A stretch of DNA of 48,273 bases from Betaproteobacteria bacterium (GTDB taxonomy: Bacteria > Pseudomonadota > Gammaproteobacteria > Burkholderiales > SG8-41): positions 1 through 48,273 of the forward strand of contig JACQOI010000055.1 in assembly GCA_016202615.1 (NCBI GenBank). The letters are read 5' to 3'. Below the pieces are notes generated by a model. That model had not been told where the DNA came from. It did no database searches and worked only from the letters and a program-made list of their open reading frames with translations. Position numbers and translations under genes: made by a program. Below, one piece after another: positions 5,893 through 29,170 of the stretch; position 1 is the stretch's first letter; the number at the start of each line of letters is the position of its first letter.

Positions 5893-6894
5893 ATGAGAAA
5901 CAAAAAGCAGCGGGTTCATTTATTTCTGGCGGGTGCAATTTTGAGCATTGCTGCGCCGGTGGCCTTGACGCAAACCGCCACCATAAGCGCGGCGCAAGCT
6001 TATCCGAGCAAACCGATCCGGCTGATTGTGCCTTATCCACCTGGTGGCGGCGCAGACATTCTCGCGCGCGCACTTGGGCAGAAACTCACCGAAACCTTCG
6101 GGCAGTCGGTGGTGGTGGACAATCGGGCGGGTGCAACCGGTATTGTGGGTACCGATATCGTTGCGAAAGCAGCGCCTGACGGGTACACACTGATCATGAT
6201 TACGAGCGACCAAACGATCGTCTCGAGCCTTTATGCCAAGCTGCCCTACGATCTGGTGGAGGATTTCGCGCCGGCGACCTTGGCGACTTCGCAGCCGTAC
6301 ATCATGGGCGTCCATCCTTCCGTAGCGGCAAAATCGGTCAAGGAGTTCATCGCCCTGGCCAAATCGAAGCCTGGCCAGTTAAATTACGCCTCGGGCGGAA
6401 ACGGGGGTACGCCCCATCTTGCCGTGGAGCAACTCAAGACTATGGCCGGGATCAACATGGTGCACGTGCCGTACAAGGGCGGAGGCCCCGCCCTTCTGGC
6501 GCTGATCTCGGGCGAGGTCGCGATGCTGTTCAGCAGCCTGCCTTCGACGCTGCCTCAAGTCAAAGCCGCCAAAGTCAGGGCGCTCGCGGTGAGCAGCGCG
6601 AAGCGCTCGCCCGCAGTGCCGGAACTGCCGACGGTGGCCGAATCCGGTGTGCCCGGATTTGCAGTCACCAGCTGGTATGGCATCCTGGCGCCCGCGAAAA
6701 CGCCAAAGCCGATCATTGCCAGACTCCACGCTGAAATCGTCAAGGAGCTGAATACACGGGAGTTTAGAGCGCGGCTTGCGAACGATGGAACCGACGTCGT
6801 GGGCAGCACGCCGCAAGCATTTGCCGATTTCATGAAGGCTGATATTGCCAAATGGGTCAAAGTGATCAAGGCGTCAGGCGTGCGTATGGATTGA
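5893..6894 (+). CDS. Bug family (TctC-like) tripartite tricarboxylate transporter substrate-binding protein
   Basis: 333-aa ORF with a signal peptide, then YPSKPIRLIVPYPPGGGADILAR, VDNRAGA, YKGGGPA and KWVKVIK. A GAGGAA RBS precedes the ATG. Confidence 0.9.
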   Translation: MRNKKQRVHLFLAGAILSIAAPVALTQTATISAAQAYPSKPIRLIVPYPPGGGADILARALGQKLTETFGQSVVVDNRAGATGIVGTDIVAKAAPDGYTLIMITSDQTIVSSLYAKLPYDLVEDFAPATLATSQPYIMGVHPSVAAKSVKEFIALAKSKPGQLNYASGGNGGTPHLAVEQLKTMAGINMVHVPYKGGGPALLALISGEVAMLFSSLPSTLPQVKAAKVRALAVSSAKRSPAVPELPTVAESGVPGFAVTSWYGILAPAKTPKPIIARLHAEIVKELNTREFRARLANDGTDVVGSTPQAFADFMKADIAKWVKVIKASGVRMD

Positions 6895-13373: not shown

Positions 13374-15131
13374 TTACTGCGCTCTGGTGTTTTTCGCAGC
13401 CGCGAGCTTTTCGTCCCAATCGGCGGGTAACTCGATCTTGCTCGCAACGGCATAACCTATGGGGCCATTCGCGGCAAACACGTAAGCGGTGTTCCGCAGC
13501 GGATCACCGGTTACGGCGACAAGGAAATCGTCCGCCTCCCAGGCGATCGGAACCAGCCGATCGGGATCATCCGACTCGTAATAGAACTTCGGTATATGTC
13601 CGAGCCGGACTTCTTCAGCAAGGTTCCAGACCTTGCGATTCGTCCAGTCCCGCAGAATTCTTTCGAACTGCCAGGCAGGGATGCGAGCCTTCTGGAACAG
13701 AAACTCCTTGACGTCCTGCTTGGACCATCCAGCCGCGGCTATCATCTCGGCGAGCAAGGGGCTCAGGAGAATGAGGGGACGCAGCGCCCCACCCCCGTGC
13801 GACCCGACTGCGAACATGAGCTGCCATGTGTGCTCACGCGTGACGCCATCCGCAACATACGTAAGCAGTTCTTCAGGCGTTGTCCCCGATACCGATGACA
13901 ATGGATTCCCACCACTATAGCGCTGGATCAGGACGGTATTGTCCGAGGACTCGAAGCCCATCCCTACATTGTTGGGCGGCCAACCTATTTTCTTGAGAAC
14001 GTCCTCGTTCTCCGCAAGGACAACACGCCAGGTTCCGCCGTACGTGGCCTTGTCGTTACCGCCGATCAGGAAGCCCGCGACATTGCGCAGATAGAGGCGC
14101 CAGAATCGGCCAATTGATGTGTTCGGAAGTACGCCGTCGCGCAGCACGCCCTGCCCGTAATTGAAGCCCAGTTGCTTGATGATGGGTCCATTGAGAATGA
14201 TGAGCGTGTCGGAGCCCGGCGTACTGCCACTGTGCTCAACCCCGTATTCCGGGTCGAGCATGGCCTGCACCAATGCGACCAGGATGGGCATGTACTCGGG
14301 GCGACATCCGGCCATGACGCCGTTTACGGCGATGCTGCGCACTGTAGCCGCGCGGTTGTCAGGCAATACGATGCCGAGCACTTCAGCGGGCTTTCTGTCG
14401 GTGAACCCGAGAAAAGCCTCTATCTTCGCCTTTGTCGGCGGGACAATCGGCAGGCTGTCACTCCACTGGCGCGTGCGAAAGAACTCGTTGACTTCGTCAT
14501 GGCTGCCGGAAAACACGATTTCGCAGTCGCTGGGTTCGTCATCCTTGCCGAAATGGTCCGCTGCCGTTGCAGTAAGGTTCTGGATCACGCGATCGATCGT
14601 TATGCCCAGAATGTTCTTCTGCAGCACAGCGGTCGCCTGGACGGCGGGATGTCCCGGCAGCAAGGCCAGGGGAAGATCTGGCATGCCCAACCCCATGGAA
14701 CAGGCCGCGGCCTGCCCCATGAAACCTTCTGCCACGATCGAGGAAGACGGGATACCGCCGGCTTCCGCGGCTGCGCTGGCCCGCAACACGGCGGGCGTGC
14801 AGCTCCCTCAGGCGCCTACCGCAGCAATGGCTGCATCGACACCAAGTTCCTTGAATCGAGCCGGCAGCGCGGCAACCACTTCCCGTTCGTCATGTCCATG
14901 AGTGCTGCCGAACTCTTTCCAGCTGACGAACTTCATGTCCTTGAAGCGTGATTTCAATTCCTTTTCCATCCAGGCAAAGATTTCTTCACCCCGATAGAGA
15001 TAGTTCCAGACGAAAGCTATCGTCTTGCCGTCGAACGATTTCAGCCTGGGCGCGAGCGGTTTTGTCCTGACCTGCCGCGGACTTCTCGGCCAGTAGACTT
15101 CATAGTGCCCATCGTTCTCGCGTCCGCTCAT
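13374..15131 (-). CDS. Predicted selenoprotein: UGSC (UxxC) module fused to an uncharacterised AGCRPEYMP domain (585 aa with Sec at TGA 14808-14810)
   Basis: The ORF track splits it into 14808-15131 (…AAIAAVGA + TGA) and 13374-14789 (GTG-initiated). Both are in one frame. The codons between them read U-G-S-C-T-P-A with no other stop, and no RBS precedes the GTG. The same interruption occurs in two paralogues, and a SECIS-like hairpin follows the TGA. Confidence 0.8.
14771..14802 (-). promoter_or_regulatory. SECIS-like recoding hairpin, 5 nt 3' of UGA 14808-14810
   Basis: mRNA is CUGCAC-GCCCGC-[CGUGUU]-GCGGGC-CA-GCGCAG. It has a 6-bp perfect upper stem, a 2-nt bulge, a lower stem with 5 of 6 pairs, and a G/U-containing apical loop. 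Confidence 0.6.
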
Positions 15132-15175: not shown

Positions 15176-16144
15176 TCAATCGGGCTTGATGGCCGCCTCT
15201 TTGATGACTTTTGCCCAGAAGACACGTTGTGCCTTGATGTAGGCGAGAAATTCCGCTGGTGTCACAGACGAGGTGTCGAGCCCTTCTTTCTTGAGTCCGT
15301 CCCTGATACGCGGGGTGGCGAGGACTTTGGTGAGCGTGTCGTAAATCCGGTCTACGGTATTCCTGGGCGTTCCCGCAGGTGCAAGCACGCCCATCCAGGC
15401 GCGAACATCAAATCCGGGATATCCCGCTTCCCGCATGGTCGGGATGTCAGGGGCCTGCGATGAACGATTCGGCCCCGTGACGGCGAGTGCAACAAGCTTG
15501 CCGCTCGCAGCCTGGGGAAGCGATGAAGCGAAACTGCCGAACAGAAGCTGCACCTCGCCGGAGAGGATCGCCAGCGTTGCGGGACCGCCACCCTTGTAGG
15601 GCACGTGAACCAGGTCGATCCCGGCCATTGTCCTGAACACCTCAGCGGCGAGGTGGTTCGGGCTTCCAACGCCCGCGGAGCTATATAAAAAGGGGCTTGA
15701 TTTCGCTCGGGACACCAAGTCTTCAACGGAAGTGGCCCGCACTGACGGATGAACGACCAGCAGGTACTGCGCGGAGCCGATCAGCGTGATTGGCGCGAAA
15801 TCCTTCTCCGGATCAAACGTTATGTCGGTATAGAGGCTCGGGTTAACAACCAGCGCTGAGCTATGCCCGAGGAGCAGCGTGCATCCGTCGCTGGTCGCAC
15901 GAGCAACGATCGCTGTGCCGATGTTTCCCGCAGCGCCTGATCGATTGTCGATGACAATTTGTTGCCCTGTGGCCTCTCCCCAGCGGGGCGCCAGCAGCCG
16001 TGCCAGGGAATCTGCGCCGCCACCCGGCGGGAACGGGACCACCAGTCGAACCGCTTTGCTGCCACACTGCTGCGCGAGCGCCGTACCGGACATAAAGCAC
16101 GTCAGGGAAAAAACAATCACACTGAGAAGAGAATGACTATTCAT
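15176..16144 (-). CDS. Bug family (TctC-like) substrate-binding protein
   Basis: 322-aa ORF with a signal peptide, AVRLVVPFPPGGGADSLAR, IDNRSGAAGN, YKGGGPA and FWAKVIKEAAIKPD. It ends 44 bp upstream of the selenoprotein gene start. Confidence 0.9.
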   Translation of the reverse strand: MNSHSLLSVIVFSLTCFMSGTALAQQCGSKAVRLVVPFPPGGGADSLARLLAPRWGEATGQQIVIDNRSGAAGNIGTAIVARATSDGCTLLLGHSSALVVNPSLYTDITFDPEKDFAPITLIGSAQYLLVVHPSVRATSVEDLVSRAKSSPFLYSSAGVGSPNHLAAEVFRTMAGIDLVHVPYKGGGPATLAILSGEVQLLFGSFASSLPQAASGKLVALAVTGPNRSSQAPDIPTMREAGYPGFDVRAWMGVLAPAGTPRNTVDRIYDTLTKVLATPRIRDGLKKEGLDTSSVTPAEFLAYIKAQRVFWAKVIKEAAIKPD

Positions 16145-16179: not shown

Positions 16180-16755
16180 TCAGTCGATCTTAGCACCCGA
16201 ATCGCGCACGACCTTCGCCCATTTGCCGAGATCGGTTTTGAGAAACGCGGCAAACTGCCCGGGAGTGTTGTGTACGGGCTCTGCACCGAGCACCGCCCAG
16301 CGTTCTTTGATTTCGGGAAGCTGCACGATCTTGCTGATTTCCGAATGGAGCCGGTTGATGACCGCCGTTGGCGTGCCGGCCGTCGCCAGTACTCCGTACC
16401 AGACGAAAATCTCGTAGCCGGGCAATCCCGACTCGCCGATCGGCGGCAGCTCGGGCGCTGCCGAAGTGCGCCCCGCACCTGTCGTGCCGAGTGCACGCAG
16501 CTTGCCTGCCTTGACCTGCGGCAGCGCGATCGGCGCGCCGGGAAACATGATCGAAATCTGTCCGCCGAGCAAATCGCTGAATGCATTCGTCACGCCTTTG
16601 TACGGCACGTGCACGAGCTTGACGCGGGCGAGACTGTTGAACATCTCGCCTGCGAGATGCAGCGCGCTGCCATTGCCGGCGGACCCGTAATTAAGCTGCC
16701 CGGGTTTCGATTTTGCGAGCGCAATCAGCTCCTTCACCGATTTGACCGGCAGTAA
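16180..16755 (-). pseudogene. 5'-truncated Bug family gene (C-terminal ~190 codons only)
   Basis: Homology starts at ...LPVKSVKELIALAKSKPGQLNYGSAGNGS, normally around residue 120 of Bug proteins. The signal peptide and the PPGGG segment are missing. The breakpoint carries a 14-bp tandem duplication, CAGTAATCTGGGTC x2, at 16750-16777. Confidence 0.8.
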
Positions 16756-16899
16756 TCTGGGTCCAGTAATCTGGGTCGAAGTAACTTTCCTTGGCACGTG
16801 CGTTGATGCGGATAACCAAATTGCGAGTCGATATCCACATCCATCCTGGCATCGCGCGGCGTGCCAACCGGCGGTGAGGCCGACGACGCGGCACCGTGC

Positions 16900-18639
16900 T
16901 TACCTTCCCAGTTCGACGAGTCTGCGATCCCAGTCTTTCGGGAGCCGGATCTGCTTGCCAACTGGATAGCCGAGCAAGCCGTTATGCGCAAAGACGTACG
17001 CATTGTTGCGCAAGGGATCACCCGTCACCGCAATCATGAAATCTTCTGCTTCCCAAACAATCGGCACCATGCGGTTCGGATCGTCCGACTCGTAGAACAC
17101 CTTCGGTATGTGCCCGAGCCGCACTTCCTCTGCAAGATTCCAAACAGACCTGATGTTCCAATCGTGCAGCATGCGCTCAAACTGCCATGCCGGAATCCGC
17201 GCATGATCGAAAAGATAGCGCTTCAGGTCCGCCTTCGACCAGCCTGTCTTGGCAATCGTCTCCGCGATGATCGGGCTCAACACAACAAGCGGCCGCAGCG
17301 TTCCCGCATGCGGGCCCACCGTAAATATGAGATGCCACGAGGTCTGTTTCAACACCGCATCCGCAACGTAAGGAAGCATCTGTTCTGGCGTGGTGCCGGA
17401 AACTGACGATAATTGGTTGCCCCCGGTGTAGCGTGCGATGGTTACCGTGTTCTCGCCCGCGGAGAAACCCATCTCAACGCTGTTGGATTCCCAGCCAATG
17501 TTATTAAGAACGTCCTCGTTCTCCGCAAGCACCACCCGCCAGGTGTTGCCGTAGGTGGCTTTGTCATTTTTGTGATGTAGGAATCCAGCGACGTTCCGGA
17601 GGTACAGCCGGAAGAACCGGCCCACCGATGTATTGGGCAGAAGGCCGTCGCGCAGAACGCCCTGCGTGTAATTGAAGCCGAGCTGCTTGATGATCGGCCC
17701 GTTCAGGATGATGAGCGTATCACCCCCAGGCGTGTTGCCGCTGTGCTCGACCCCGTATTCTGGGTCGACCATCGCCTCGACCAACGCAACGAGGATCGGC
17801 ATGTACTCGGGGCGGCAGCCCGCCATCACGCCATTCACCGCGATGTTCCAGATGGTTGCGGCGCGGCTGTCAGGCAGAATGATGCCGAGCACCTCGTCGG
17901 GGTTGCGGTCGGTGAAGAGCAGGAACGCCTCGATCTTCCCCCTCGTCGGAGGAACGATCGGCAGCCCGTCGCTCAGCTCGTTCTCGCAGAAATAACGGTT
18001 CACCGCATCGAAGCCGCCCGCAAAAATAATGTCGCGCGCCCCAGGTTCCGGCTTCTCACTCGCCACCGTAGGTGTGCCGGTCAGGTTTGCGATGACCCGT
18101 TCAACGGTGCCTTCGAGAACAGCGCGCATCAGTTCCTCTTTGCTCTGCACGCCGGGGTGGCCCGGCATGCGCGCAATCGGCAGGTTCGGCATGCCGAGCC
18201 CGACGGAAATTGCCGCCGCCTGGCCGATGAAACCTTCTGAAACAAGTGATGACGAAGGAACGCCGGCTGCCTCGCATACTGCACTCGCCCGCAACACGGC
18301 GGGCGTGCAGCTCCCTCAAGAACCCATACCGGAGATGGCGGCGTCCACCCCCAGGTCCTTAAAACGCTGCGGCAGGGATGCGAGGACCTCGCGTTCGTCT
18401 CTGGCGTGCGTGCTGCCGAATTCGCGCCAGCTCACGAAGCGTACATCGGGAAAGCGTGCCTTAAGCCCCTCCTCAAGCCATCCGAAAACTTCGTCGCCGC
18501 GGTACACGAAATCCCACAACTGGGCAACGGTCTTACCCTCTAGCGTTTCGAGCCGCTTCGCTAGACGCGTCAACTGCACTTGCCGCCGACCGCGCGGCCA
18601 CAGCACTTCGTAGTATCCATCGTTGTTCACAGTAGACAT
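16900..18639 (-). CDS. Predicted selenoprotein: UGSC (UxxC) module fused to an AGCRPEYMP domain, paralogue 2 (579 aa with Sec at TGA 18316-18318)
   Basis: ORFs 18316-18639 (…AAISGMGS + TGA) and 16900-18297 are in one frame, joined by U-G-S-C-T-P-A. By eye it is about three quarters identical to 13374-15131 along the whole length. Confidence 0.8.
18279..18310 (-). promoter_or_regulatory. SECIS-like recoding hairpin, 5 nt 3' of UGA 18316-18318
   Basis: mRNA is CUGCAC-GCCCGC-[CGUGUU]-GCGGGC-GA-GUGCAG, giving 12 Watson-Crick pairs with a 2-nt bulge. The 29 nt after the UGA are identical to paralogue 1. Confidence 0.65.
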
Positions 18640-18692: not shown

Positions 18693-19685
18693 TCACTCGG
18701 GTTTGATGTCCGCGTCTTTGATCACTTTGGCCCAGAGCGTTTTTTCGGACTTGATGTATGCGGCAAAGTCCTCCGGCGTACTGCCGGAGGGCTCGAAGCC
18801 CGCTCTCTTGAGAGCCTCCTGCACCTCCGGCATCGAGAGGAGTTTCAGGAGGTCGTGGTTGAGGCGGGTCACGATGGCCTTGGGCGTGCCGGCCGGCGCA
18901 AGCACGCCGTACCAAGCCCGAACGTCGAAGCCCGGCAAGCCCGACTCCTGCATCGTCGGGACGCTCGGAACCTCATGTGAGCGCTTCGGCCCGGTGACCG
19001 CCAGCGCCTTCACGCTTCCCGCTTTCACATGCGGCAGCGATGAGGCGAAACTGCCAAAAAGGATCTTCACCTCTCCAGACAGCACGGCGAGGGCCACGGC
19101 ACCGCCACCCTTGTAGGCAACATGAATTATATCCACGCCGGCCCTGCCTTTGAAAAGCTCCCCCGCGAGGTGATTGGGGCTGCCGATCCCAGGCGACCCA
19201 TAGGGGAACTGACCGGGTTTTGACTTGAGCAGTACGATCAAGTCCTGCAGTGAGTTGGCTTGGACCGAGGAGTGCACCACAAGCAGGTACTGCGCGGATC
19301 CGAGGAACGCGATCGGCGCGAAGTCCTTCTCTGAGTCAAAGGGCAGATTCTTGTACAGGCTGGGGTTGACTACGAGCGGCGTGCTGAATCCCCACAGCAG
19401 CGTGTAGCCGTCGGGCTGCGCCCTCGCCGCGATTCCATAGCCGATGTTACCGGCTGCGCCGGAACGGTTGTCCACGATGACCCGCTGGCCCGCAAGTTCC
19501 GTCAACTTTAGCGCCACGATCCTTGCGAACGTGTCTGTCCCGCCGCCGGGTGGGTAAGCGACGATCAAGCGGATCGGGCGGCTTGGATAGCTCTGGGCAA
19601 CAGCGGTGTTGGCAATTAGGCAAGTTGCTAGGCCAAGTACGGCCGCCACCAGCGCTGCAATGGCCAATACTCGTAATTCATTCAT
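18693..19685 (-). CDS. Bug family (TctC-like) substrate-binding protein
   Basis: The track ORF extends to 19853 through a repeat. A plausible start is the ATG at 19685 (MNELRVLAIAALVAAVLG..., preceded by GGAAGAGGAGGA). The protein has YPSRPIRLIVAYPPGGGTDTFAR, YKGGGAV and LWAKVIKDADIKPE. Confidence 0.85.
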   Translation of the reverse strand: MNELRVLAIAALVAAVLGLATCLIANTAVAQSYPSRPIRLIVAYPPGGGTDTFARIVALKLTELAGQRVIVDNRSGAAGNIGYGIAARAQPDGYTLLWGFSTPLVVNPSLYKNLPFDSEKDFAPIAFLGSAQYLLVVHSSVQANSLQDLIVLLKSKPGQFPYGSPGIGSPNHLAGELFKGRAGVDIIHVAYKGGGAVALAVLSGEVKILFGSFASSLPHVKAGSVKALAVTGPKRSHEVPSVPTMQESGLPGFDVRAWYGVLAPAGTPKAIVTRLNHDLLKLLSMPEVQEALKRAGFEPSGSTPEDFAAYIKSEKTLWAKVIKDADIKPE

Positions 19686-19707
19686 CGCGATTCCTCCTCT
19701 TCCATCG

Positions 19708-19867
19708 AGAAATAGGAAAATCAATGCGCCCGTCGCCGGCGTCCTGTGACTATGCAACGCTGCAGCGATGCCGGATCGGTGCTCGGTGCGCCCGATCGGG
19801 GCTGCCCGCGCGTGCTCCACCGTCCGCGTCCGTCCTGCCCAGGTGCTTTGCAAAGTCGTTGCGGCAA
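19708..19867 (-). repeat. R repeat, copy R1 (160 bp)
   Basis: AGAAATAGGAAAATCAATGCGCCCGTCGCCGGCGTCCTGTGACTATGCAACGCTGCAG...CTTTGCAAAGTCGTTGCGGCAA. By my count it differs from R2 (20403-) by 4 substitutions and one 3-nt indel. It fills the gap between the PNPOx-like gene and the Bug gene. Confidence 0.9.
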
Positions 19868-19898: not shown

Positions 19899-20327
19899 TT
19901 ACGCTTCCCGCTGCATGATCACCTTGCGCGTCTCAATGACTTTGTCCACGCGGATGATGACTGCCGTGCCCTTGCGCTCTGGGTCACGGTCAAGTTCCGC
20001 CTGAACCGTGCGCGCCATGACGGCGTCGCGCAACTCCCCGCTTGGGTGAAGTTCCGCAACGCCCACGAACTTCCAGGTCTTGCGCGCAGCCGGATTCCGG
20101 TAGAGCAGGCATATCTTCGGATTCTCTTTGAGCGCCAGCTCGGTCTGGCCGTGGGACCGTTCCCAGAAAGCGAGGTGCTCGCTGTCCCATACCATCACGC
20201 TCCCCTTGAAAACGACATCGGGTACGCCATTCGCGAGCGCCGTAGCCACCATCACCGGATTCCCGTCCGCAAGCGATGTCGCAAGCATTGCCTTCATCTC
20301 TTCTGTTAGTGCAATCATCCCGTTCAC
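19899..20327 (-). CDS. Pyridoxamine 5'-phosphate oxidase-like FMN-binding family protein
   Basis: 142-aa ORF. Its size and segments (NPVMVATALANGVPDVVFKGS, ICLLYRNPAARKTWKFVG) fit the small split-barrel PNPOx-like family. Assignment is from recollection. Confidence 0.55.
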   Translation of the reverse strand: MNGMIALTEEMKAMLATSLADGNPVMVATALANGVPDVVFKGSVMVWDSEHLAFWERSHGQTELALKENPKICLLYRNPAARKTWKFVGVAELHPSGELRDAVMARTVQAELDRDPERKGTAVIIRVDKVIETRKVIMQREA

Positions 20328-20402: not shown

Positions 20403-20667
20403 AGAAATAGAAGGAAAATCAATGCGCCCGTCGCCGGCGTCCTGTGACTATGCAACGCTGCAGTGATGCCGGATCGGTGCTCGGCGCGCCCGATCGGGGC
20501 TGCCCGCGTGTGCTCCACCCTCCGCGTCCGTCCTGCCCAGGTGCTTTGCAAAGTCGTTGCGGCAAATTATGCAGTCCCCGGGCGCGCCAAGTCAAACGCA
20601 GGGCGCGCCGCCCTGCGCCCACGTAACCTTGGCACCGGTAGCGAACTCGGTGCTTAGTTGCTCGCTT
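20403..20667 (-). repeat. R repeat, copy R2 (long form)
   Basis: It shares the 160-bp R1 core and a further ~100 bp (GCGGCAAATTATGC.GTCCCCGGGCGCGCCAAGTCAAACGC...CCTTGGCAC.GG.AGCGAACT.GGTGCTT.GTTGC) with R3. It is contiguous with the IS91-like fragment at 20657-20835. Confidence 0.85.
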
Positions 20668-20835
20668 TATCGACCAGAAACTCCAGCACCGCACGCCGAA
20701 AGCCCTCAGCAAGCAGACTTCCCGGCACAGCCGGCAGCGTGACAAAGCGCCCATCGGGCAGCAATGCTCCGTCGGCGGCGAGCACGGGTACGTGCGGGTT
20801 GAAGTTGACGAGAAGGCGCAGTATGCGTCACCTCA
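20657..20835 (-). pseudogene. Internal fragment of an IS91-family (Y2 HUH) transposase
   Basis: Minus frame reads RLLVNFNPHVPVLAADGALLPDGRFVTLPAVPGSLLAEGFRRAVLEFLVDKASN*. This resembles the HUH region of Y2 transposases as I recall it (LNFHPHxHxLVxDGxxxxDGxFxxLP......LxExFRxxVLxxLVxK). The HUH histidines are partly degraded and stops lie on both sides. Confidence 0.5.
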
Positions 20836-20969: not shown

Positions 20970-21968
20970 CTAATCCGCGCGTATGCCAGCAGCTTTCACC
21001 ACTTTTGCCCATTTATGAAATTCACTATTAACATAGGCACTGAACTCTGCCGGCGAGCTGCTGACGGCGGGGGCAAGACCACCTGCTGCATACTGTGCCC
21101 TTACATCCGGCAACTTGATTATTCTCGAAATCTCGGCATGTATTTTGTCTATGATTTCCGTGGGCGTTCCGGCGGACGCGAATAAACCGTACCACGCCCG
21201 CACATCAAAGCCGGGAACACCCGCTTCGCTGACAGTGGGGACGTCTGGGATCGATGGGTCGCGTGTATTGGCTGTAATTGCCAGCAATCGCAGTCTTCCC
21301 GTCTTTATGTGTGGCAACACTGGCAGATTGCCCGCAAACATTAGATCGATACGACCAGCCACAAGGTCGACGGTATACTGTGGGCTGCCTCGGTAGGGAA
21401 CATGGACCATGCTCACTGCAGCCATTGATTTAAAAAGCTCGCCAGCCAGGTGAGTGGTCGACCCGGTTCCTCCAGAACCGTAATTGAGCTGTCCGGGTTT
21501 TGCTTTCGCCAAAGCGATCAGTTCTTTCACTGATTTGACGGGTAACGATGGGTGGACAACCAAAATCAAGTACGTCGTTGCGGCGAGGGAGATAGGCGCA
21601 AAATCGCGCAGGGTATCGTACGGGATTTTCTTATAGAGGCTCGCGCTCACCGCGTTAGTGCCGGGCGTCCCGAGCAACAAGTTATAGCCATCGGGCGGCG
21701 ATTTGGCGACGATCTCCGCTCCCAGGAGCCCGCCGGACCCTGCGTGGTTGTCTACGATCACGGGTTGGCCCCATGCCTCCGAAAGCTTGGTTGCAATCGG
21801 CCGTGCAATGACGTCGAGCACGCTGCCTGGAGGAAAAGGGTTGACGATTCTTACGGCCTTTTCCGGGTAGCCTGCGCCAAGACAAGGCAGTGCCGCAAGC
21901 AACGTAAACGCGCAAACCAAGGGTTTAGACGGCATAGCTTTGCACCTTGAGAGGATATTCCCGGACAT
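20970..21968 (-). CDS. Bug family (TctC-like) substrate-binding protein
   Basis: 332-aa ORF (alternative start at M12, 21935) with a signal peptide, AVRIVNPFPPGSVLDVIAR, VDNHAGSGG and KWAKVVKAAGIRAD. Confidence 0.9.
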   Translation of the reverse strand: MSGNILSRCKAMPSKPLVCAFTLLAALPCLGAGYPEKAVRIVNPFPPGSVLDVIARPIATKLSEAWGQPVIVDNHAGSGGLLGAEIVAKSPPDGYNLLLGTPGTNAVSASLYKKIPYDTLRDFAPISLAATTYLILVVHPSLPVKSVKELIALAKAKPGQLNYGSGGTGSTTHLAGELFKSMAAVSMVHVPYRGSPQYTVDLVAGRIDLMFAGNLPVLPHIKTGRLRLLAITANTRDPSIPDVPTVSEAGVPGFDVRAWYGLFASAGTPTEIIDKIHAEISRIIKLPDVRAQYAAGGLAPAVSSSPAEFSAYVNSEFHKWAKVVKAAGIRAD

Positions 21969-22055: not shown

Positions 22056-23072
22056 TCAAATTCCCCGAATAATCCGCGTCTGCGGCATCCCCGCTGCGAT
22101 ATAGACATCCTGGGGACCGGGTCCCCCGGCAACCACGACACAGATTTCATCCGGACCACCGGATCGCCACACCGTTTCCGCATCGCCTCGGCCGGCCGCA
22201 CGTGCGGTCGCAACGAAGGCCTTGGGGAAGTAGCTGGCCGGAAGGCGAGCGAGCTCCCACAGTCGCTGCTGGATGTCTCGCTTCGAAAGGCCCTCTTCAT
22301 ATAATGAATGAACATGGTTGACCCCAAGCAGCAGTAGCACGCCGCCGCCGCCAAACATAGGCGGCATGCTGGTCGCAATCTGACGCAGCGTTTCGTCTGC
22401 GCCGACACCGTCCCCACCCGAGATATTGCAGAAGTTGAAAGCCCTAAATACGGTGACGGTGCTGTCCTCGCGCTTGAAGCCCCGATCGACGTGGAACGGC
22501 GTCCAGGGATTCTCTTCTTCGTTTTCACCGCACATATAAGAGTAGCGCAGCGGAGAGCTGAAACTGGATTTGGAGTAAACGCCAGGCAGCGCTCCGCCCA
22601 CGTTCAGCAAGATGAGACGCATGGCGCGGCCTATCGTGGTATTGGCACGCCAGCCAGGGCCGAGGCAACCAATCCCACAGTTGATGTCGAGCTTTCCCCG
22701 CACGGGGCCGTTGACCAGCAGAAAGGGGGCCATAGCGTTAGTGCCGATCTGCAGCGGCTCCAACGGAAACCGCGGATCGCTCAACGCTTCGACGGCCGCG
22801 ATGATGACGGGCATATATTCCGGGCGGCATCCAGCCATGATGGCATTGACAGCAATTGCTTCTACGGTCGCAGGCCCTTTGCGCGGCGGCAAGACACCAA
22901 TGATTTCATTTCCGTCCCGCCCGGATGCTTGGACAAACTGCGCGACGCTCTCGTGAGTGGCCGGGATGATGGGGGCACCATCGGTCCAACCCTGGTCGTA
23001 GGCATGTTCAAAAGCGCACGTGATGAGTTCGGCCACCGAAGCAGCTTCGATATCCATGTAAGGGCGCGTCAC
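22056..23072 (-). CDS. Uncharacterised AGCRPEYMP-domain protein, stand-alone homologue of the C-terminal part of the two fused selenoproteins
   Basis: 338-aa ORF. TDGAPIIPATHESVAQFV...IAVNAIMAGCRPEYMPVIIAAVEAL...LLVNGP aligns with SDSLPIVPPTKAKIEAFL...IAVNGVMAGCRPEYMPILVALVQAM...IILNGP of 13374-15131. It starts 17 bp after the UGSC gene stop. Confidence 0.75.
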   Translation of the reverse strand: MTRPYMDIEAASVAELITCAFEHAYDQGWTDGAPIIPATHESVAQFVQASGRDGNEIIGVLPPRKGPATVEAIAVNAIMAGCRPEYMPVIIAAVEALSDPRFPLEPLQIGTNAMAPFLLVNGPVRGKLDINCGIGCLGPGWRANTTIGRAMRLILLNVGGALPGVYSKSSFSSPLRYSYMCGENEEENPWTPFHVDRGFKREDSTVTVFRAFNFCNISGGDGVGADETLRQIATSMPPMFGGGGVLLLLGVNHVHSLYEEGLSKRDIQQRLWELARLPASYFPKAFVATARAAGRGDAETVWRSGGPDEICVVVAGGPGPQDVYIAAGMPQTRIIRGI

Positions 23073-23089
23073 AGCTCGTTCATCCTTTT

Positions 23090-23752
23090 CTACACCGGAA
23101 TCGATGAGCGAACGATACCCCGGGGCCGAATTTGCTCTTTGGCCATATCCCTGGATCGACGCTCGATTTCGCCTGGCTTAAGCGTAAGCCCGTCAATGAT
23201 CGTGGGCAGCATGGCTTCGACTCGTGCGCGCAGGGCATCAAAGTCAAGCTCGCGAATGGGATTCTTTGTTTCAGCAATAACGATGTAAGGAAATCCCTGC
23301 GTCGACGCCATACGCCGCCCGAACTTGGCAAACGTATCGGTGGCGATCATGACTGTGGGAATGCCGCGTTGTTCCAGCGCCGGCGTAACGTGGCTACACC
23401 ACGTCGTGCATGACCCTCAATCGCCGGTGGCGGTAATGGCGACGTCAACGCGTCGTGCGAGCGCGTCCAGGTGCTCCCGCATCCCGTCGAGCAGCTTTCC
23501 CTCCTTGCTTGCCGGCGCTTCGCGGACCGGTTGTTCCATCACGATTGCTTTCACGCGGTAGCGCTCCTCAAGCAGTGTGCCAAGAACTTTCAGGATGCGC
23601 ACTGCCGATGGACGCCAGTTGGCCACCAGTCCTACCACTTTGTCGTCAAGGCTCGGAGGCCGTGGGGCGAGCGCGTTCGGAGCGCCTTCGTCAAGATAAT
23701 CAGCAAGTGGAGAAACCATTCTCAATTTAAGGTAACCCATAGCACATTCCAT
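23090..23752 (-). CDS. Predicted stand-alone UGSC (UxxC) selenoprotein (220 aa with Sec at TGA 23417-23419)
   Basis: ORFs 23417-23752 (…VAITATGD + TGA) and 23090-23350 are in one frame. The bridging codons read U-G-S-C-T-T-W-C-S-H-V-T-P-A-L-E-Q-R-G-I-P-T-V with no stop. The N-terminal start choice (23752, 23740 or 23719) is uncertain. Confidence 0.75.
23388..23404 (-). promoter_or_regulatory. SECIS-like hairpin, 12 nt 3' of UGA 23417-23419
   Basis: mRNA is ACGUGG-[UGUAG]-CCACGU, a 6-bp perfect stem with a G/U-containing loop. It is shorter than in the other two copies. Confidence 0.45.
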
Positions 23753-23962
23753 TCATGAAAAAGATGACGCCTTTTCGGCCGCGGATCACAGTGAAAACGC
23801 CGACCAGCATTGACTCTTGGCTGCACAGGAGAGAAGCTCGTTTACGATAACACCATCCAAATACACCGCCTTGTAGGGCATTGTCAACTTGCTGTATCGG
23901 GCCAACACATATTGCACTGATGGTGTTTGATTAGGAATTGTAGCGGAGAAAGTAGTTTTGGG

Positions 23963-24224
23963 AGAAATAGGAAAACCAATGCGCCCGTTGCCGGCGTCCT
24001 GTGCCAATGCAACGCTGCAGTGATGCGGGATCGGTGCTCGGTGCGCCCGATGGCGCGCGATTGGGGCTGCCCGCGTGTGCTCCACCGTCCGATCCGCGCT
24101 GCCGGAGCGCTTCGCAACGCCCGTTACGGCAAATTATGCTGTCCCCGGGCGCGCCAAGTCAAACGCGCCCTGCGCTCACGTAGCCTTGGCACGGGCAGCG
24201 AACTTGGTGCTTGGTTGCACGCTT
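23963..24224 (-). repeat. R repeat, copy R3 (long form, more diverged)
   Basis: It has the same start, AGAAATAGGAAAACCAATGCGCCCGTTGCCGGCGTCCTGTG. It carries a 10-nt insertion (GGCGCGCGAT) relative to R1/R2 and other indels. Weak similarity to the R2/IS91 fragment may continue to about 24300. Confidence 0.8.
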
Positions 24225-24440: not shown

Positions 24441-25838
24441 TTATTTCGTAAGGGTCAGCTGAACGAGTGCGTCGGCCCGGTCGTGTTGGTCGAGATCGCG
24501 ACAGGTCGCAATAATCGATTCGAACTGAGCCGCGGGGATCGGTAAGCCTGGAATGACGCCGCGAATGCGGCGCGCCTCCTCCTCGAAGTCCCACATGAAC
24601 TCGCGCCCGGTGGACTGCTTCGTATAGCTTTTCCCATCCTTGGTATAGATCGTGATCCGCGGACCGAAGAGCGTCATGTGGTGCGACGGAATGATCGTCA
24701 CCCGTTTCATAAGATCAAGTACCTCCGGGGGGTCGTCGGCGGCGGTCGGCTTGACCCCGGAGCTCCGCAGCACGGGAAAACCCCGTTTCACGACTCCGTA
24801 CGCGGCGTAGTAGGACGTGCTTCCCGGCGCCCGCGTTAGATCTTCCCTCCGGATCGGGAAAGCGGGGCTCGGGTACTGCGTCTCGAGCCAGTTCACCACG
24901 GCCTCGACGCGATCAACATCTTCATATTTGATGTTGTTCTCCTCGCAAAGCTTCGCCGTCACCTCGACGTGAGCAATGTTGTAGCCGGCAGTCGAGTAGA
25001 TGCGGTAGAGCGTTTCGAGAAAAATCCATGTCTTGCCGAGGTCGGCGGTGATCTTCGCCAGGCTCGTTTTCGTGTCGCCGACAAAGCTGTAGGTAAGCCG
25101 GCCCAGGTTGTTTCCTGCGTACGCGTGATAAAAGCCCGCGTCGCCTTCGAGTACGGTCTCGCCGCCCACGTGCCCCTGCTGCGCCAGCGCGATCGCGAGC
25201 ATGGCATTGCGCGCTGCCGCGCCTTCACGCAGCGCGCGGCCTCCGCTGCGTATCCCTTCGAGGTTGCCTCCCGCCAGGCTCGCGCAGAGCGCGATCGCGC
25301 TGTTCATCTGCTCTTCGGTCAAACGCAGGATCTTCGCGGCCGCTACTGTAGCGCCAAAGATGCCGAACACCGGACCCGCGTGGAAGCCGCGCGACATCAC
25401 CGTCGGAATGAAGTCGGCCGCCATCCGCTCCATGACCTCGTAGCCGGCGGCGATTCCGGTGATGAAGTCGCCGCCCGACGCGCCTGCCGTCTCGGCTGCG
25501 ACGAATGCCGCCGGAATAATGCTCGTGCCCGGGTGGGTCAGCATGCGGAAGGAATCCAGCTTGCCGCCGGCCATTGCCATCTCCGAGTTGGCAAACGCGG
25601 CGCCGCCTCTCGTCACCTTGGCGCCGTTCACCATAATGGTTGCGCCATTGCGCACGCCGGCTTCTTCTTCGCTGATCAGCTTCACGGCCTGCTGCCCGGC
25701 GGGTGATTGAGAGCCGAGGAGCACCGAGGCGAGCCCGTGTAGTGTCACGCCCTTCGCACGATCGATCACTTCGGGCGGAACATCTTCGTAGCGCAGCCCG
25801 ACGGCCCACTGCGCGAGATGACGACTTAGAGATGCCAT
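24441..25838 (-). CDS. MmgE/PrpD family protein
   Basis: 465-aa ORF. The N-terminal LSRHLAQWAVGLRYEDVPPEVIDRAKGVTLHGL and the overall length are typical of the family. Confidence 0.8.
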   Translation of the reverse strand: MASLSRHLAQWAVGLRYEDVPPEVIDRAKGVTLHGLASVLLGSQSPAGQQAVKLISEEEAGVRNGATIMVNGAKVTRGGAAFANSEMAMAGGKLDSFRMLTHPGTSIIPAAFVAAETAGASGGDFITGIAAGYEVMERMAADFIPTVMSRGFHAGPVFGIFGATVAAAKILRLTEEQMNSAIALCASLAGGNLEGIRSGGRALREGAAARNAMLAIALAQQGHVGGETVLEGDAGFYHAYAGNNLGRLTYSFVGDTKTSLAKITADLGKTWIFLETLYRIYSTAGYNIAHVEVTAKLCEENNIKYEDVDRVEAVVNWLETQYPSPAFPIRREDLTRAPGSTSYYAAYGVVKRGFPVLRSSGVKPTAADDPPEVLDLMKRVTIIPSHHMTLFGPRITIYTKDGKSYTKQSTGREFMWDFEEEARRIRGVIPGLPIPAAQFESIIATCRDLDQHDRADALVQLTLTK

Positions 25839-27116: not shown

Positions 27117-29051
27117 CTAAGCGAACTCCTCGATGATATCAAGCCTCTGGAGGGTCTCGGGAAACGGAAGGCCCGTCTCGACATCCCAGCCCATCTGGCG
27201 ATAGTATTCGTCGACCATCGCGGGCAGGTAAGGCGCTAGGGTCTTGCCCTTGGAAGGACCGGCAGGTGCCGGCTCCAGGTAACGAGGCGAAACATCAAAC
27301 TCGTCGGACTTGTTGAATCCGCGCCGGGCATAAACGAGGCGCATCAGGTTGGTAACTCGCTCACCGCATAGAAGCGCCTCGTGCGCAGTAAAATCATCCC
27401 AGCCTACCGCTTGCGCCAGAGCCCGGCTGCTCAGACGCATACTGTCCTTCACGCCGACTCCAACGAACATGCACACGCCCAGGCAGTCGTAGAAAAGCTT
27501 GGCAAACTGAGTCAGGCGGACCGCGTCGACCTTCTTGAGGGCCTCCTCTTGCGTGTCGACAACACCAGGCATCACGTTGGAATAGCCCAGCTGAGGCTCG
27601 GGTAGCCAGTCCACTCCCCACCCTTGGTGACTGGGGCCTGTGCCAGCCATCACGTAACCGAATATGGCGCTCCAGAAGGGGCGCCAGTCGTGGATGTTGA
27701 TTCCCGCCCCCTTGACGTGCACCGGGAGGCGGTTGAACTCGTCCACCAGCCCCTTCTCTCCACCCAGCAACGCAGGGGCTGCCTTGAGACCTGCGGCGAG
27801 CTTGCCGCCAAAGCCTTCATGCTTGATCATCTTGTCGATGAGATCCATGGCGGCCTGCCAGTTGCCCCAGGTCAACTCCAGTCCGTCGGTGTCATCCTTG
27901 GTGAGGAATCCCTTGTTGTAGGCTTCAAAGGCCATGCTGATGATGCTGCCAAAGGTACCCGCTTCGACGCCAATGTCGTCGTACAGATCCACCAGTATGA
28001 GTCCGGCATCCGCCTCGGTCACCCCGATCATGGCGGCAGCCCCTTCGTGTTGCTCACCGCCGCCGCAGGTGCTCACGACCATTCCGGCAAATTGCCCATC
28101 GCTGATGTGTACATCATAGGCACACCCGATCTTGCAGTTGTAAGAAGGCTTGGGAACGATGGTCCACCTCTCGCACGCTTCGACAAATCTCGTGGCGAAA
28201 CCATCTCCCCACTCGGGATCCGTCATATTCTTGGCAGCCACGCGGAACCGCTTCCCGAAGCGAACCCCATAGGCCTTGGAGATGCCTCCGTCTTTCAGGC
28301 CCACGGAGGGGGGCGGGACGACGACGGACTTGGCAGGGTCGCTCAGTAACACGTTGCCTTCCCATTCAACTGCCGTATCCACCAACGCCTCCGGTCTAGC
28401 CAGAGCTACCTTGCCGGTACCGCGCACCGCGACGGCCTTCAGCAGTTTGCTGCCCATGATGGCTCCGGGGCTTCCCTTTCCTGCCCCGTGGTTGCGGTCC
28501 GCTTTCACGGACGCCCCCGGAAGCAGGGCCTCCCCGGCAGTTCCTATGCAAGCAACGCTGATATGCTCGTCATCATCGAGTTCGCGCTTGATCAGGCGCT
28601 CGGTTTCCCGGGTCCCTTGCCCCCAAACTCCGCTGGCGTCTCTCAACTCCACTTTCGCATCATCAATCCAGAGGTAGACGGGCTTCGCGGCTTTGCCGGT
28701 GAAGATAATGCCTTCATAGCCGGCGTGCTTCAGGTAGGCTGCCCAGAAGCCATGCCCATGGCCGACACCTGCCGCATAGGGAATGCTGTAATGCAGGCAG
28801 ACCGTTACCCAGTTCGCAGAGCTGGGGGCCGGGGTGCCCGCCAAGGGCCCGGTCATGAATATGAACGGCGCTTCCGGGTCGGTGGGCTTGCCCTTGGCGG
28901 GCATGTGTTTGAGAAGGTAGTAGAGTCCGAGCCCCGCGCCTCCTACATACCGGCGCAGCACGTCCTCGGACGGCAGAGGTTCTTTTCTTATCGTGCCGCG
29001 CGTCAAGTCCACCGACAAAATGTGTGCGCCGTATCCACCTTTGATAGCCAT
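27117..29051 (-). CDS. Aldehyde:ferredoxin oxidoreductase (AOR) family tungsto/molybdopterin enzyme
   Basis: The track ORF runs to 29168. An ATG at 29051 is preceded by GGAGGG and gives MAIKGGYGAHILSVDLTRGTIRKEPLPSEDVLRRYVGGAGLGLYYL, the typical AOR N-terminal domain. At ~644 aa it has both AOR_N-like and AFOR_C-like regions. Confidence 0.8.
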   Translation of the reverse strand: MAIKGGYGAHILSVDLTRGTIRKEPLPSEDVLRRYVGGAGLGLYYLLKHMPAKGKPTDPEAPFIFMTGPLAGTPAPSSANWVTVCLHYSIPYAAGVGHGHGFWAAYLKHAGYEGIIFTGKAAKPVYLWIDDAKVELRDASGVWGQGTRETERLIKRELDDDEHISVACIGTAGEALLPGASVKADRNHGAGKGSPGAIMGSKLLKAVAVRGTGKVALARPEALVDTAVEWEGNVLLSDPAKSVVVPPPSVGLKDGGISKAYGVRFGKRFRVAAKNMTDPEWGDGFATRFVEACERWTIVPKPSYNCKIGCAYDVHISDGQFAGMVVSTCGGGEQHEGAAAMIGVTEADAGLILVDLYDDIGVEAGTFGSIISMAFEAYNKGFLTKDDTDGLELTWGNWQAAMDLIDKMIKHEGFGGKLAAGLKAAPALLGGEKGLVDEFNRLPVHVKGAGINIHDWRPFWSAIFGYVMAGTGPSHQGWGVDWLPEPQLGYSNVMPGVVDTQEEALKKVDAVRLTQFAKLFYDCLGVCMFVGVGVKDSMRLSSRALAQAVGWDDFTAHEALLCGERVTNLMRLVYARRGFNKSDEFDVSPRYLEPAPAGPSKGKTLAPYLPAMVDEYYRQMGWDVETGLPFPETLQRLDIIEEFA

Positions 29052-29170
29052 GGCTTTCCCTCCGGGGGAAGATGATGCTGCAGAAGCTCGAGCAACTGCG
29101 GCCAATTTTACAACATTGTTCAAGGACCGAATTCGCTCGATGCTATCTCGAAAATTCTCAAACGGCAATT

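Follow-up and report, generated by a model that had tools for sequence, protein, structure and literature searches.

The window analysed here, that is, the whole stretch of 48,273 nucleotides (contig JACQOI010000055.1, positions 1 to 48,273 of the forward strand, assembly GCA_016202615.1 of a Betaproteobacteria bacterium), carries three copies of a selenoprotein module named UGSC after its motif U-G-S-C, in which U is selenocysteine (Sec), and three copies of a second domain that we call X. At one place the two are encoded by separate genes, a stand-alone UGSC gene and a 338-aa open reading frame (ORF), with a 17-bp spacer between the TAG stop of the former (ending at 23090) and the GTG start of the latter (23072). 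At two other places they are fused into single polypeptides of 579 and 585 aa, and both fusion ORFs read through one TGA each, at residue 108 (Table 1). An earlier note, made from the letters of this DNA, had described the split pair with its 17-bp gap and the two fusions, and all of these lie where it had placed them. A hidden Markov model (HMM) scan of the six-frame translation gave three domains of either kind for the window, and no more. The X part of both fusions is 35% identical to the 338-aa ORF (BLASTP E 2e-41), and the blocks that the note had picked out as common to the three second-domain copies are present in their alignment, namely D-G-L/A-P-I-I/V-P-P/A-T, IAVN-x-x-MAGCRPEYMP, a T-containing block and L/I-x-NGP.

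Table 1. Coordinates of the UGSC and X genes, their features and their neighbours in the window, and of thioredoxin reductase (TrxR)-like genes at related loci (locus:position).
Feature	Position	Strand	Basis
Stand-alone UGSC selenoprotein gene, 220 aa, Sec = residue 112	23090..23752	(-)	translation; Pfam PF24696, E 3.9e-39
In-frame TGA read as Sec (U of UGSC; ATGD-U-GSCTTW)	23417..23419	(-)	frame continues on both sides
Hairpin resembling a Sec insertion sequence (SECIS), 14-32 nt past first UGA base, apical loop GUA	23387..23405	(-)	RNAfold
Domain-X gene, 338 aa, GTG start at 23072	22056..23072	(-)	translation
Cys82 codon of X, motif A-G-C-R-P-E-Y-M-P	22827..22829	(-)	sequence
UGSC-X fusion, 579 aa; Sec108 codon 18316-18318; X Cys275 codon 17815-17817	16900..18639	(-)	
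UGSC-X fusion, 585 aa; Sec108 codon 14808-14810; X Cys276 codon 14304-14306	13374..15131	(-)	
TctC/Bug periplasmic solute-binding protein, directly downstream of X	20970..21968	(-)	Pfam PF03401, E 1.1e-68
TctC/Bug solute-binding protein, upstream of 579-aa fusion	18693..19853	(-)	PF03401, E 2e-68
TctC/Bug solute-binding protein, upstream of 585-aa fusion	15176..16144	(-)	PF03401, E 2.9e-58
MmgE/PrpD-family gene, upstream of the UGSC-X pair	24441..25838	(-)	Pfam PF03972, E 1.3e-44
TrxR-like gene (related locus, not window)	L084:8800-9717		
TrxR-like gene (related locus, not window)	L085:8378-9301		
TrxR-like gene (related locus, not window)	L089:6418-7344		
TrxR-like gene (related locus, not window)	L074:~6122-6880		

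All three UGSC copies of the window belong to Pfam family PF24696, which the stand-alone protein matches with 135 bits and the N-terminal parts of the fusions with 92-96 bits (E ~4e-26 to 4e-27; cut-off 25 bits). Against NCBIfam NF041046 they score 103.9, 47.8 and 46.4 bits, below its cut-off of 125, and thus they lie outside that equivalog while being members of the Pfam family. The motif is encoded in all three as TGA-GGN-AGC/TCA-TGC. Among 72 homologous UGSC domains from other genomes, the Sec column is TGA in 71 and a Cys codon (TGY) in one, and the motif reads UGSC in 65, UGSS in three, UGGC in two (L006 and L061a), UGAC in one (L061b) and CGSC in one (L060, a metagenome-assembled genome labelled Methanobacteriaceae). 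The three UGSS loci (L005, L041 and L045) form a clade that keeps Sec and has Ser in place of the motif Cys, and its partner X keeps the conserved Cys82 described below. A hairpin whose apical loop contains GU begins some 15-17 nt past the UGA; in 26 homologues its consensus stem has 6 bp, with compensatory changes at four of these pairs, and at one pair 14 sequences have GC and 12 have CG. The z-scores from single-sequence folding of the post-UGA region were non-significant, and the hairpin showed only in the comparative analysis. Since the TGA column is conserved, the frame is kept on both sides and a covarying hairpin follows downstream, the window TGA codons are, on comparative grounds, genuine Sec codons. 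The 48-kb contig contains no tRNA gene, hence no tRNA-Sec, and no Rfam family at the gathering threshold; thus the Sec machinery must lie elsewhere in the genome.

Public gene calls end at the Sec TGA, and the two fusions are for this reason filed as fragments of 465-471 aa: only the 465-aa part after the TGA is annotated for the 579-aa fusion (HY525_02575, P0124) and only a 471-aa 3′ fragment for the 585-aa fusion (HY525_02555, P0121). The stand-alone UGSC appears in two pieces, and X, for which NCBI chose an ATG five codons in, is listed as a 333-aa 'hypothetical protein' (HY525_02600). The same mis-annotation was seen in essentially all Sec-type homologues, whose database lengths cluster at about 415-470 aa. 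In public data, almost all Sec-type UGSC proteins and all fusions are wrongly annotated as two or three separate pieces.

The earlier note could assign the second domain to no family, and our searches bear this out: neither the window protein nor 67 diverse stand-alone members, taken at E up to 1, matched any Pfam-A or NCBIfam family, and no match to Protein Data Bank (PDB) sequences was obtained with phmmer from a single sequence or with a profile of 101 sequences. More than 4187 homologues of X were found, and the hits among clusters at 90% identity number more than 4000; all are named 'hypothetical protein', and at 50% identity the family comprises at least 6117 clusters (E up to 1e-3), 1807 of them with E up to 1e-30. 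We aligned 157 diverse X domains, in which G122 and E183 are conserved in all sequences, G81, N144, R149 and W190 in at least 99%, and D31-G32-x-P34...P38, T69, A74, A80, C82, P84, P88, P123 and E185 in at least 91%. No His is conserved in these domains, and Cys82 is the only conserved Cys. This residue lies in the motif AGCRPEYMP, which the note had called invariant; it is so within this genome, but family-wide the motif is A-G-C-x-P-E-Y-x-P, and the Cys82 column holds Cys in 150 of the 157 domains (96%), Ala in five and Ile in one. The Ala82 and Ile82 variants keep all other conserved residues, and some of them are still fused to UGSC. In the related loci described next, Cys82 is kept in 91 of 92 domains, and the sole Ala82 locus (L021) keeps UGSC.

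Related loci were collected with a pattern scan for X, one genome per species, which yielded at least 588 X loci; the best 80 of these and one metagenome locus were analysed, and coupling was counted with iterated HMMs on translations that read through TGA. This sample holds 92 X domains in 81 loci (770 kb) from Betaproteobacteria, Dehalococcoidia and other Chloroflexota, Methylomirabilota/Rokubacteria, Binatia, Poribacteria, Deltaproteobacteria, Entotheonella, Ktedonobacteraceae and the cultured Robertmurraya sp. 2P01SA. A same-strand UGSC is adjacent to or fused with X in 74 of the 92 cases, standing directly upstream or N-terminally fused in 39 and directly downstream or C-terminally fused in 35. 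Every UGSC lies on the strand of its nearest X (76/76), 71 of the 76 within 300 nt and with a median envelope gap of 92 nt, and nowhere else in the flanks of the X loci was a UGSC found in the 770 kb examined. The remaining 18 X domains have no adjacent UGSC; three of them are at contig ends, two are second X copies behind a fusion, and two have a UGSC about 1-1.4 kb away. The X genes that lack UGSC form small clades nested among linked ones. They include Poribacteria loci (L034, L046, L050, L053, L055 and L062), whose X is shorter (about 316 aa) and retains Cys82, as well as Rokubacteria loci (L043, L056 and L066). Clustering of all ORFs from the 81 loci revealed neither an alternative partner common to the UGSC-less X loci nor a general third partner besides UGSC.

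Fusions occur in both orders. UGSC precedes X in L006, L017 (three copies), L057, L079, L070, L074 and L061b, and X precedes UGSC in L061a, with no stop between the domains, as well as in P0314, P0333 and P0362, which end at the Sec codon. Full-length Cys-type fusions of the first order, without any TGA, exist as called genes (P0241-P0254 and P0285). Among the 150 best representative clusters at 50% identity, 77 have X alone, 61 are UGSC-X, three X-UGSC, eight X-X tandems and one UGSC-X-X, and fusions with UGSC total 65. We also observed proteins of higher order with X-X or UGSC-X-X architectures (P0299, P0301-P0304 and P0306, about 710-740 aa; P0424, 1254 aa), a mirrored quartet of genes in the order UGSC, X, X, UGSC (L003:4329-7589) and three UGSC-X fusions in tandem (L017:4349-9855). 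An AlphaFold2 model of the whole Cys-type fusion P0242 (pLDDT 88.6, pTM 0.90) indicates a confidently packed two-domain body. The earlier note had argued from the fused and split arrangements of one genome for a two-component unit and had asked whether the two domains co-occur elsewhere; they do so widely, among 81 loci from many phyla and in both orders, and their partner domain is no well-characterised family living apart from UGSC. We regard it as very probable that UGSC and X form one functional unit.

The fold of UGSC was read from the model of P0242, a natural Cys-type fusion, and not from the window fusions. In this model the UGSC domain has the order beta-alpha-beta-alpha-beta-(U)-alpha-beta-alpha-beta-alpha, strand 98-104 is followed by the loop that holds the Sec position, and helix 109-122 has the motif Cys at its N-terminus. 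Its PDB neighbours in Foldseek are azoreductase (3u7i), the flavodoxin domain of flavorubredoxin (4d02) and SIS/RpiB proteins. A thioredoxin fold, as guessed for UGSC in 2008, was rejected, the AlphaFold2 model and its Foldseek neighbours being flavodoxin-like. For X, the structure search that the note had proposed for the 338-aa protein gave a confident model (pLDDT 84.9, pTM 0.87), in which Cys82 sits in a short turn between two helices, at a helix N-terminus, but only a poor superposition on known structures. Class I Fe-S fumarate hydratases are the only PDB fold matches below E 1e-3; the Leishmania major enzyme (6uqn) is found with E 1.9e-4 and a Foldseek probability of 0.84, but with a TM-score of 0.24 and a root mean square deviation (rmsd) of 16.7 Å (0.24-0.26 and about 17 Å over these matches), and the alpha subunit of Methanocaldococcus jannaschii fumarate hydratase (7xky_A) is a weak match of the fusion model (E 0.011). 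Class I fumarate hydratase and the alpha subunit of L-tartrate dehydratase, dicarboxylate enzymes that are two-subunit or fused, are thus the best, albeit weak, structural neighbours of X, from which it differs in its TM-score of about 0.25, in the lack of profile likeness and in having one conserved Cys rather than three. We rejected X as a member of that class: the hhalign probability against E. coli TtdA/FumA-N is 0.2%, the three cluster Cys are lacking, and Pfam Fumerase was not matched by the 67 diverse members at E up to 1. Because of the first two of these results, X is treated here as a family without assignable relatives.

In contrast to X, UGSC does have recognizable relatives, in the selenoprotein B subunits of the glycine, sarcosine, betaine and D-proline reductases. 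Of 35 diverse UGSC sequences, 19 matched GrdB (TIGR01917; best E 3.5e-6), 11 GrdH, 10 TIGR01918, nine GrdF and eight PrdB (best E 5.5e-5). Sec112 aligns at about position 149 of the PrdB model and 347 of the GrdB model, no more than about 2-3 positions away from the Sec residues of PrdB (U151) and GrdB (about U350). From these alignments we conclude that UGSC and the Sec segment of selenoprotein B (GrdB/F/H and PrdB) are remote homologues. The U151C variant of PrdB is inactive (PMC11229817), and in the Global Ocean Sampling data 255 Sec and 21 Cys homologues were counted for UGSC, as against 321 Sec and 7880 Cys homologues for the Trx-like 1 redoxin family (PMC2398784). Such retention is what a catalytically indispensable Sec shows, as in PrdB, and differs from that of redoxin-type selenoproteins.

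The parallel with the Grd and Prd systems extends to their organization, since both are two-component selenoenzymes with a small Sec subunit carrying U-x-x-C and a Sec that is essentially irreplaceable, and both would act on small carboxylates, an assignment that for UGSC-X stems from our analysis. Clostridial grd operons carry trxB, and a gene of the thioredoxin-reductase type likewise accompanies UGSC-X in some operons. There are also differences. X has no sequence relationship to the pyruvoyl subunits GrdE and PrdA; no partner gene of the GrdE/G/I or PrdA type is present among the window neighbours; genes for GrdA, GrdC/D, PrdC and PrdH were not seen among the neighbours of UGSC-X; and the frequent covalent fusion of the two modules is a feature of UGSC-X and not of Grd/Prd. 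Moreover, UGSC-X is carried for the most part by heterotrophs with an aerobic or facultative way of life (Burkholderiales, SAR202-like Dehalococcoidia, Rokubacteria) and not by Stickland fermenters.

The neighbours of the UGSC-X genes vary, and they are always genes of organic-acid uptake and catabolism: TctC proteins, tripartite ATP-independent periplasmic (TRAP) and ATP-binding cassette (ABC) transporters, MmgE/PrpD proteins, family III CoA-transferase and enoyl-CoA hydratase. Others are a flavin mononucleotide (FMN)-dependent hydroxy-acid dehydrogenase, an NHL propeller, proteins of the mandelate racemase/muconate lactonizing enzyme (MR/MLE) family and luciferase-like flavin monooxygenases, the last assigned by eye for ORF cluster 3 and as Bac_luciferase in L089. 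The order UGSC-X-TctC of the window recurs in L001, L086-L088 and L079, and MmgE/PrpD adjoins in L001, L003, L006, L019, L057 and L073. A Sec-type UGSC-X fusion is also found in a cultured Bacillaceae isolate, Robertmurraya sp. 2P01SA (L057; chromosome NZ_CP154845.1, 3219601-3230587), where the operon comprises a PrpR-like sigma-54 activator, enoyl-CoA hydratase, MmgE/PrpD, the fusion, TRAP DctM, DUF6282, an NAD-binding oxidoreductase and Ldh_2. Both window fusions are of the long type. In at least four different contexts (L084, L085/L090/L091, L089 and L074), fusions of this type are followed after 16-45 nt by a gene for a TrxR-like protein of 305-308 aa. This protein matches the thioredoxin-disulfide reductase model TIGR01292 from end to end with E ~1e-74, short of the equivalog cut-off, and carries CASC where TrxR has CATC. 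The TctC-type contexts L092 and L093 lack this gene. To judge by its place and its family, the TrxR-like flavoprotein is a candidate for the dedicated electron donor of UGSC-X.

Our best reading of these observations is that UGSC-X is a selenoenzyme of two components which is fed by a reductant and acts on organic acids that the cell takes up, although the substrate class, the net reduction and the contact between Sec and substrate are what we infer by analysis. UGSC would be a small flavodoxin-like alpha/beta module of the same stock as the Sec segment of selenoprotein B, whose U-G-S-C forms a selenol/thiol pair able to cycle through a selenenylsulfide, and X, with its approximately 340 aa, would be the substrate-binding and catalytic module, having a pocket of near-invariant polar residues (D31, T69, N144, R149, N157, E183 and E185) and a Cys82 that communicates with the Sec centre. 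A carboxylate brought in by the neighbouring TctC, TRAP or ABC systems would be bound by X; the selenolate would attack or reduce it; the resulting Se-adduct would be resolved to Se-S by the motif Cys, or by Cys82 in the UGSS variants; and a thiol-disulfide system would re-reduce the centre, using in several lineages the TrxR-like flavoprotein encoded directly downstream. That the net reaction is a reduction fed by a thiol or TrxR-type system seems probable to us. We are more reserved, and somewhat short of evenly divided, about the proposed direct action of the UGSC selenolate on a carboxylate substrate in the X pocket, followed by resolution to a selenenylsulfide and by re-reduction. The suggestion of the earlier note that Cys82 is a partner of the Sec-x-x-Cys centre is plausible from the conservation pattern. 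Indeed, the UGSS clade keeps Cys82 and the Ala82 locus keeps UGSC, which fits two alternative resolving thiols around one selenium centre, small as this sample is. At its broadest, the proposal would amount to a previously unrecognised class of Sec-dependent reductase, with a Sec module sharing Grd/Prd ancestry, a partner without detectable relatives and, in some lineages, a TrxR-like donor of its own, which reductively cleaves or reduces imported organic acids in aerobic heterotrophs of soil, groundwater and ocean; this we put forward only tentatively.

Several observations speak against this interpretation. The likeness to GrdB and PrdB is local, with about 13-20 bits as against cut-offs of 300-600 for the family models (TIGR01917, TIGR01918, TIGR04483 and NF040794/5), and Pfam GRDB was not matched by UGSC sequences at E up to 0.1; with scores so far below the cut-offs and GRDB unmatched, UGSC is to be seen as a remote relative, and not as a member, of selenoprotein B. 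Since the 67 diverse X proteins show no likeness at E up to 1 to the pyruvoyl partners GrdE and PrdA or to other families, the substrate-activation chemistry of Grd/Prd is not simply transferable. The hosts also differ from Stickland fermenters in being, for the most part, heterotrophs that live aerobically. About 12 of the 92 X genes (approximately 13%) have no UGSC within 5 kb, so X may work without UGSC or with a distant copy. In about 3% of the X domains, UGSC-fused ones included, Cys82 is Ala, and the TrxR-like gene is absent from the window and from most short-type loci.

Chance adjacency of the two genes is excluded. A reading in which they merely hitch-hike together in catabolic islands, the 'fusions' being artefacts of reading through TGA and no functional unit existing, could appeal to the paralogue-rich catabolic regions in which both genes lie and to the use of six-frame segments that read through TGA, in which neighbours in frame could look fused. 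Cys-type fusions are nonetheless found as called genes without TGA, the X-UGSC fusion of L061a has no stop between its domains, Cys stands in the TGA column of homologues and a covarying hairpin comes after this codon, and the coupling persists over at least eight phyla while the other neighbours vary; the probability of this reading is next to nil. The main rival of the two-component selenoenzyme accepts the unit but divides its labour differently. X would be a self-sufficient 1-Cys enzyme, whose nucleophile, Cys82, becomes oxidised in every catalytic round, as happens in MsrA/B, ArsC or 1-Cys peroxiredoxin, and UGSC would be a dedicated selenol redoxin that regenerates Cys82 and is recycled by the TrxR-like enzyme or by cellular thiols, so that Sec never touches the substrate. 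UGSC-X resembles redoxin modules (thioredoxin or glutaredoxin with peroxiredoxin, MsrA/B or ArsC; AhpF-AhpC) in that these also consist of a small U/C-x-x-C module beside or fused to a Cys enzyme in either order, with a TrxR/AhpF-like flavoprotein in the operon and a dedicated redoxin that is sometimes absent. Adjacency and fusion in either order and the loss of the partner from some 13% of X genes are typical of redoxin-enzyme pairs, in several lineages the TrxR-like gene follows immediately, Cys82 is kept in 96% of the X domains and is placed by the AlphaFold2 model in a turn at the N-terminus of a helix, and Zhang and Gladyshev treated UGSC as thiol-oxidoreductase-like (PMC2398784). UGSC, however, lacks the thioredoxin fold, being flavodoxin-like and related to GrdB/PrdB, whose Sec attacks the substrate; its Sec:Cys ratio (255 to 21 in the ocean data, 71 of 72 in our loci) is opposite to that of redoxin families, which are far richer in Cys (321 Sec versus 7880 Cys); X is unrelated to known thiol-dependent reductases; and the Ala82 and Ile82 variants that keep the other conserved residues, some of them UGSC-fused, are hard to square with Cys82 as the sole catalytic residue. 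We consider this rival rather unlikely, while taking it seriously.

The remaining alternatives give Cys82 other roles. It could be the precursor of a pyruvoyl group, X being a pro-enzyme like PrdA or GrdE that is cut between Gly81 and Cys82, so that the new N-terminal pyruvoyl holds an amine substrate as an imine, which the selenolate of UGSC then attacks, in the manner of a miniature protein B. Such a scheme suits the remote homology of UGSC with PrdB and GrdB and the near-invariant Gly (99%) before Cys82, and the precursor residue in the reductase class of pyruvoyl enzymes is Cys, its processing requiring the Sec subunit (PMC11229817). The 67 diverse X proteins do not match any GrdE/PrdA model at E up to 1, however, no PrdH-like maturation gene was noticed, and X occurs without UGSC in some lineages. 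Cleavage sites of known pyruvoyl enzymes lie in beta-turns, unlike the inter-helix turn modelled for Cys82, while the rare Ala82 variants would find a parallel in the unprocessed GrdI of betaine reductase; we hold this scheme to be improbable. Still less credible to us are two redox-neutral schemes, neither of which we would place above the other. If Sec, the motif Cys and Cys82 together ligated a metal or an Fe-S cluster, X might be a hydro-lyase for hydroxy- or amino-dicarboxylates, with UGSC as its cluster-bearing small subunit, which agrees with class I Fe-S fumarate hydratases being the only fold matches of X below E 1e-3, with the recurrence of 7xky_A for the fusion model, with the two-subunit or fused build and dicarboxylate substrates of these enzymes and with the neighbouring MmgE/PrpD dehydratase family. 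The superposition (TM-score 0.24-0.26, rmsd about 17 Å), the hhalign probability of 0.2% and the single conserved Cys in place of three tell against it, one putative ligand is lost in the UGSS variants and another in the Ala82 variants, and the TrxR-like partner argues for thiol/selenol redox cycling. Alternatively, the one Sec of UGSC and the one conserved Cys of X could serve as opposing acid and base of an isomerase or racemase acting on a carboxylate, as do the two Cys of Asp/Glu racemase or maleate isomerase; the conserved Arg, Asn and Glu suit the binding of a carboxylate, and the context includes MR/MLE neighbours and MmgE/PrpD, a family to which an epimerase belongs. Against this, no likeness in fold or sequence to known racemase or isomerase superfamilies was found, Ala82 variants exist, and both the conserved U-x-x-C spacing and the presence of a TrxR-like neighbour indicate redox cycling of the dithiol/selenenylsulfide kind.

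Proteins containing UGSC have been known since 2005-2008 and are listed as functionally uncharacterised in reviews up to 2026 (PMC13188914); they make up about 7-8% of all selenoprotein genes in ocean metagenomes (PMC2398784, PMC9402790). In 2008, Zhang and Gladyshev mentioned a 'UGSC/Unknown_1' fusion, in which Unknown_1 has a conserved Cys and is also found alone in aquatic organisms (PMC2398784). Unknown_1 is probably X, although the two can be matched by description only; thus the coupling is not wholly new. The window proteins belong to the UGSC family (PF24696) of that work, and the fusion described there fits X; its authors guessed a thioredoxin-like fold, in contrast to the flavodoxin-like model obtained here, and their paper contains neither the near-obligate adjacency and the fusions in reverse order nor the GrdB/PrdB relation and the TrxR-like neighbour. 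What we regard as new is the near-obligate coupling in both directions across phyla, the recognition of X as a large and anonymous family, the relation of UGSC to GrdB/PrdB and its flavodoxin-like fold, its UGSS variants and the Ala82 variants of X, and the TrxR-like operon partner. An orphan motif is thereby turned into a concrete, testable enzyme system that is tied almost obligatorily to one large unnamed family. Should the new class of reductase proposed above be real, it would account for the abundance of UGSC in aquatic metagenomes, where only three other selenoprotein families at most are more abundant. Robertmurraya sp. 2P01SA, which is in culture, and the natural Cys-type fusions, which can be expressed in E. 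coli, offer tractable starting points.

Beyond the UGSC and X genes, the window (G+C 61.6%) is a paralogue-rich catabolic island, with at least nine TctC/Bug proteins and four MmgE/PrpD-family genes in its 48 kb, a 7-bladed lactonase, an aldehyde:ferredoxin oxidoreductase (AFOR) and an Amidohydro_2 enzyme. One TctC-family ORF (16180-16797(-)) spans only profile positions 85-272, and the short ORF upstream of it (16691-16894) is not TctC-like; this gene is probably 5′-truncated, frameshifted or the product of an assembly error. Three small ORFs lie between the UGSC and X units (19899-20327(-), 20419-20754(-) and 23786-24085(-)); one of them encodes a PNPOx-like FMN-binding split-barrel protein of 142 aa, and the other two (111 and 99 aa), which have no Pfam or NCBIfam match, are putative genes. 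The AFOR gene (27117-29168(-)), of the tungsten type with AFOR_N and AFOR_C domains, stands beside TctC and Amidohydro_2 genes; in a metagenome-assembled genome of Betaproteobacteria, such a setting is unusual for an enzyme known mostly from archaea and anaerobes.

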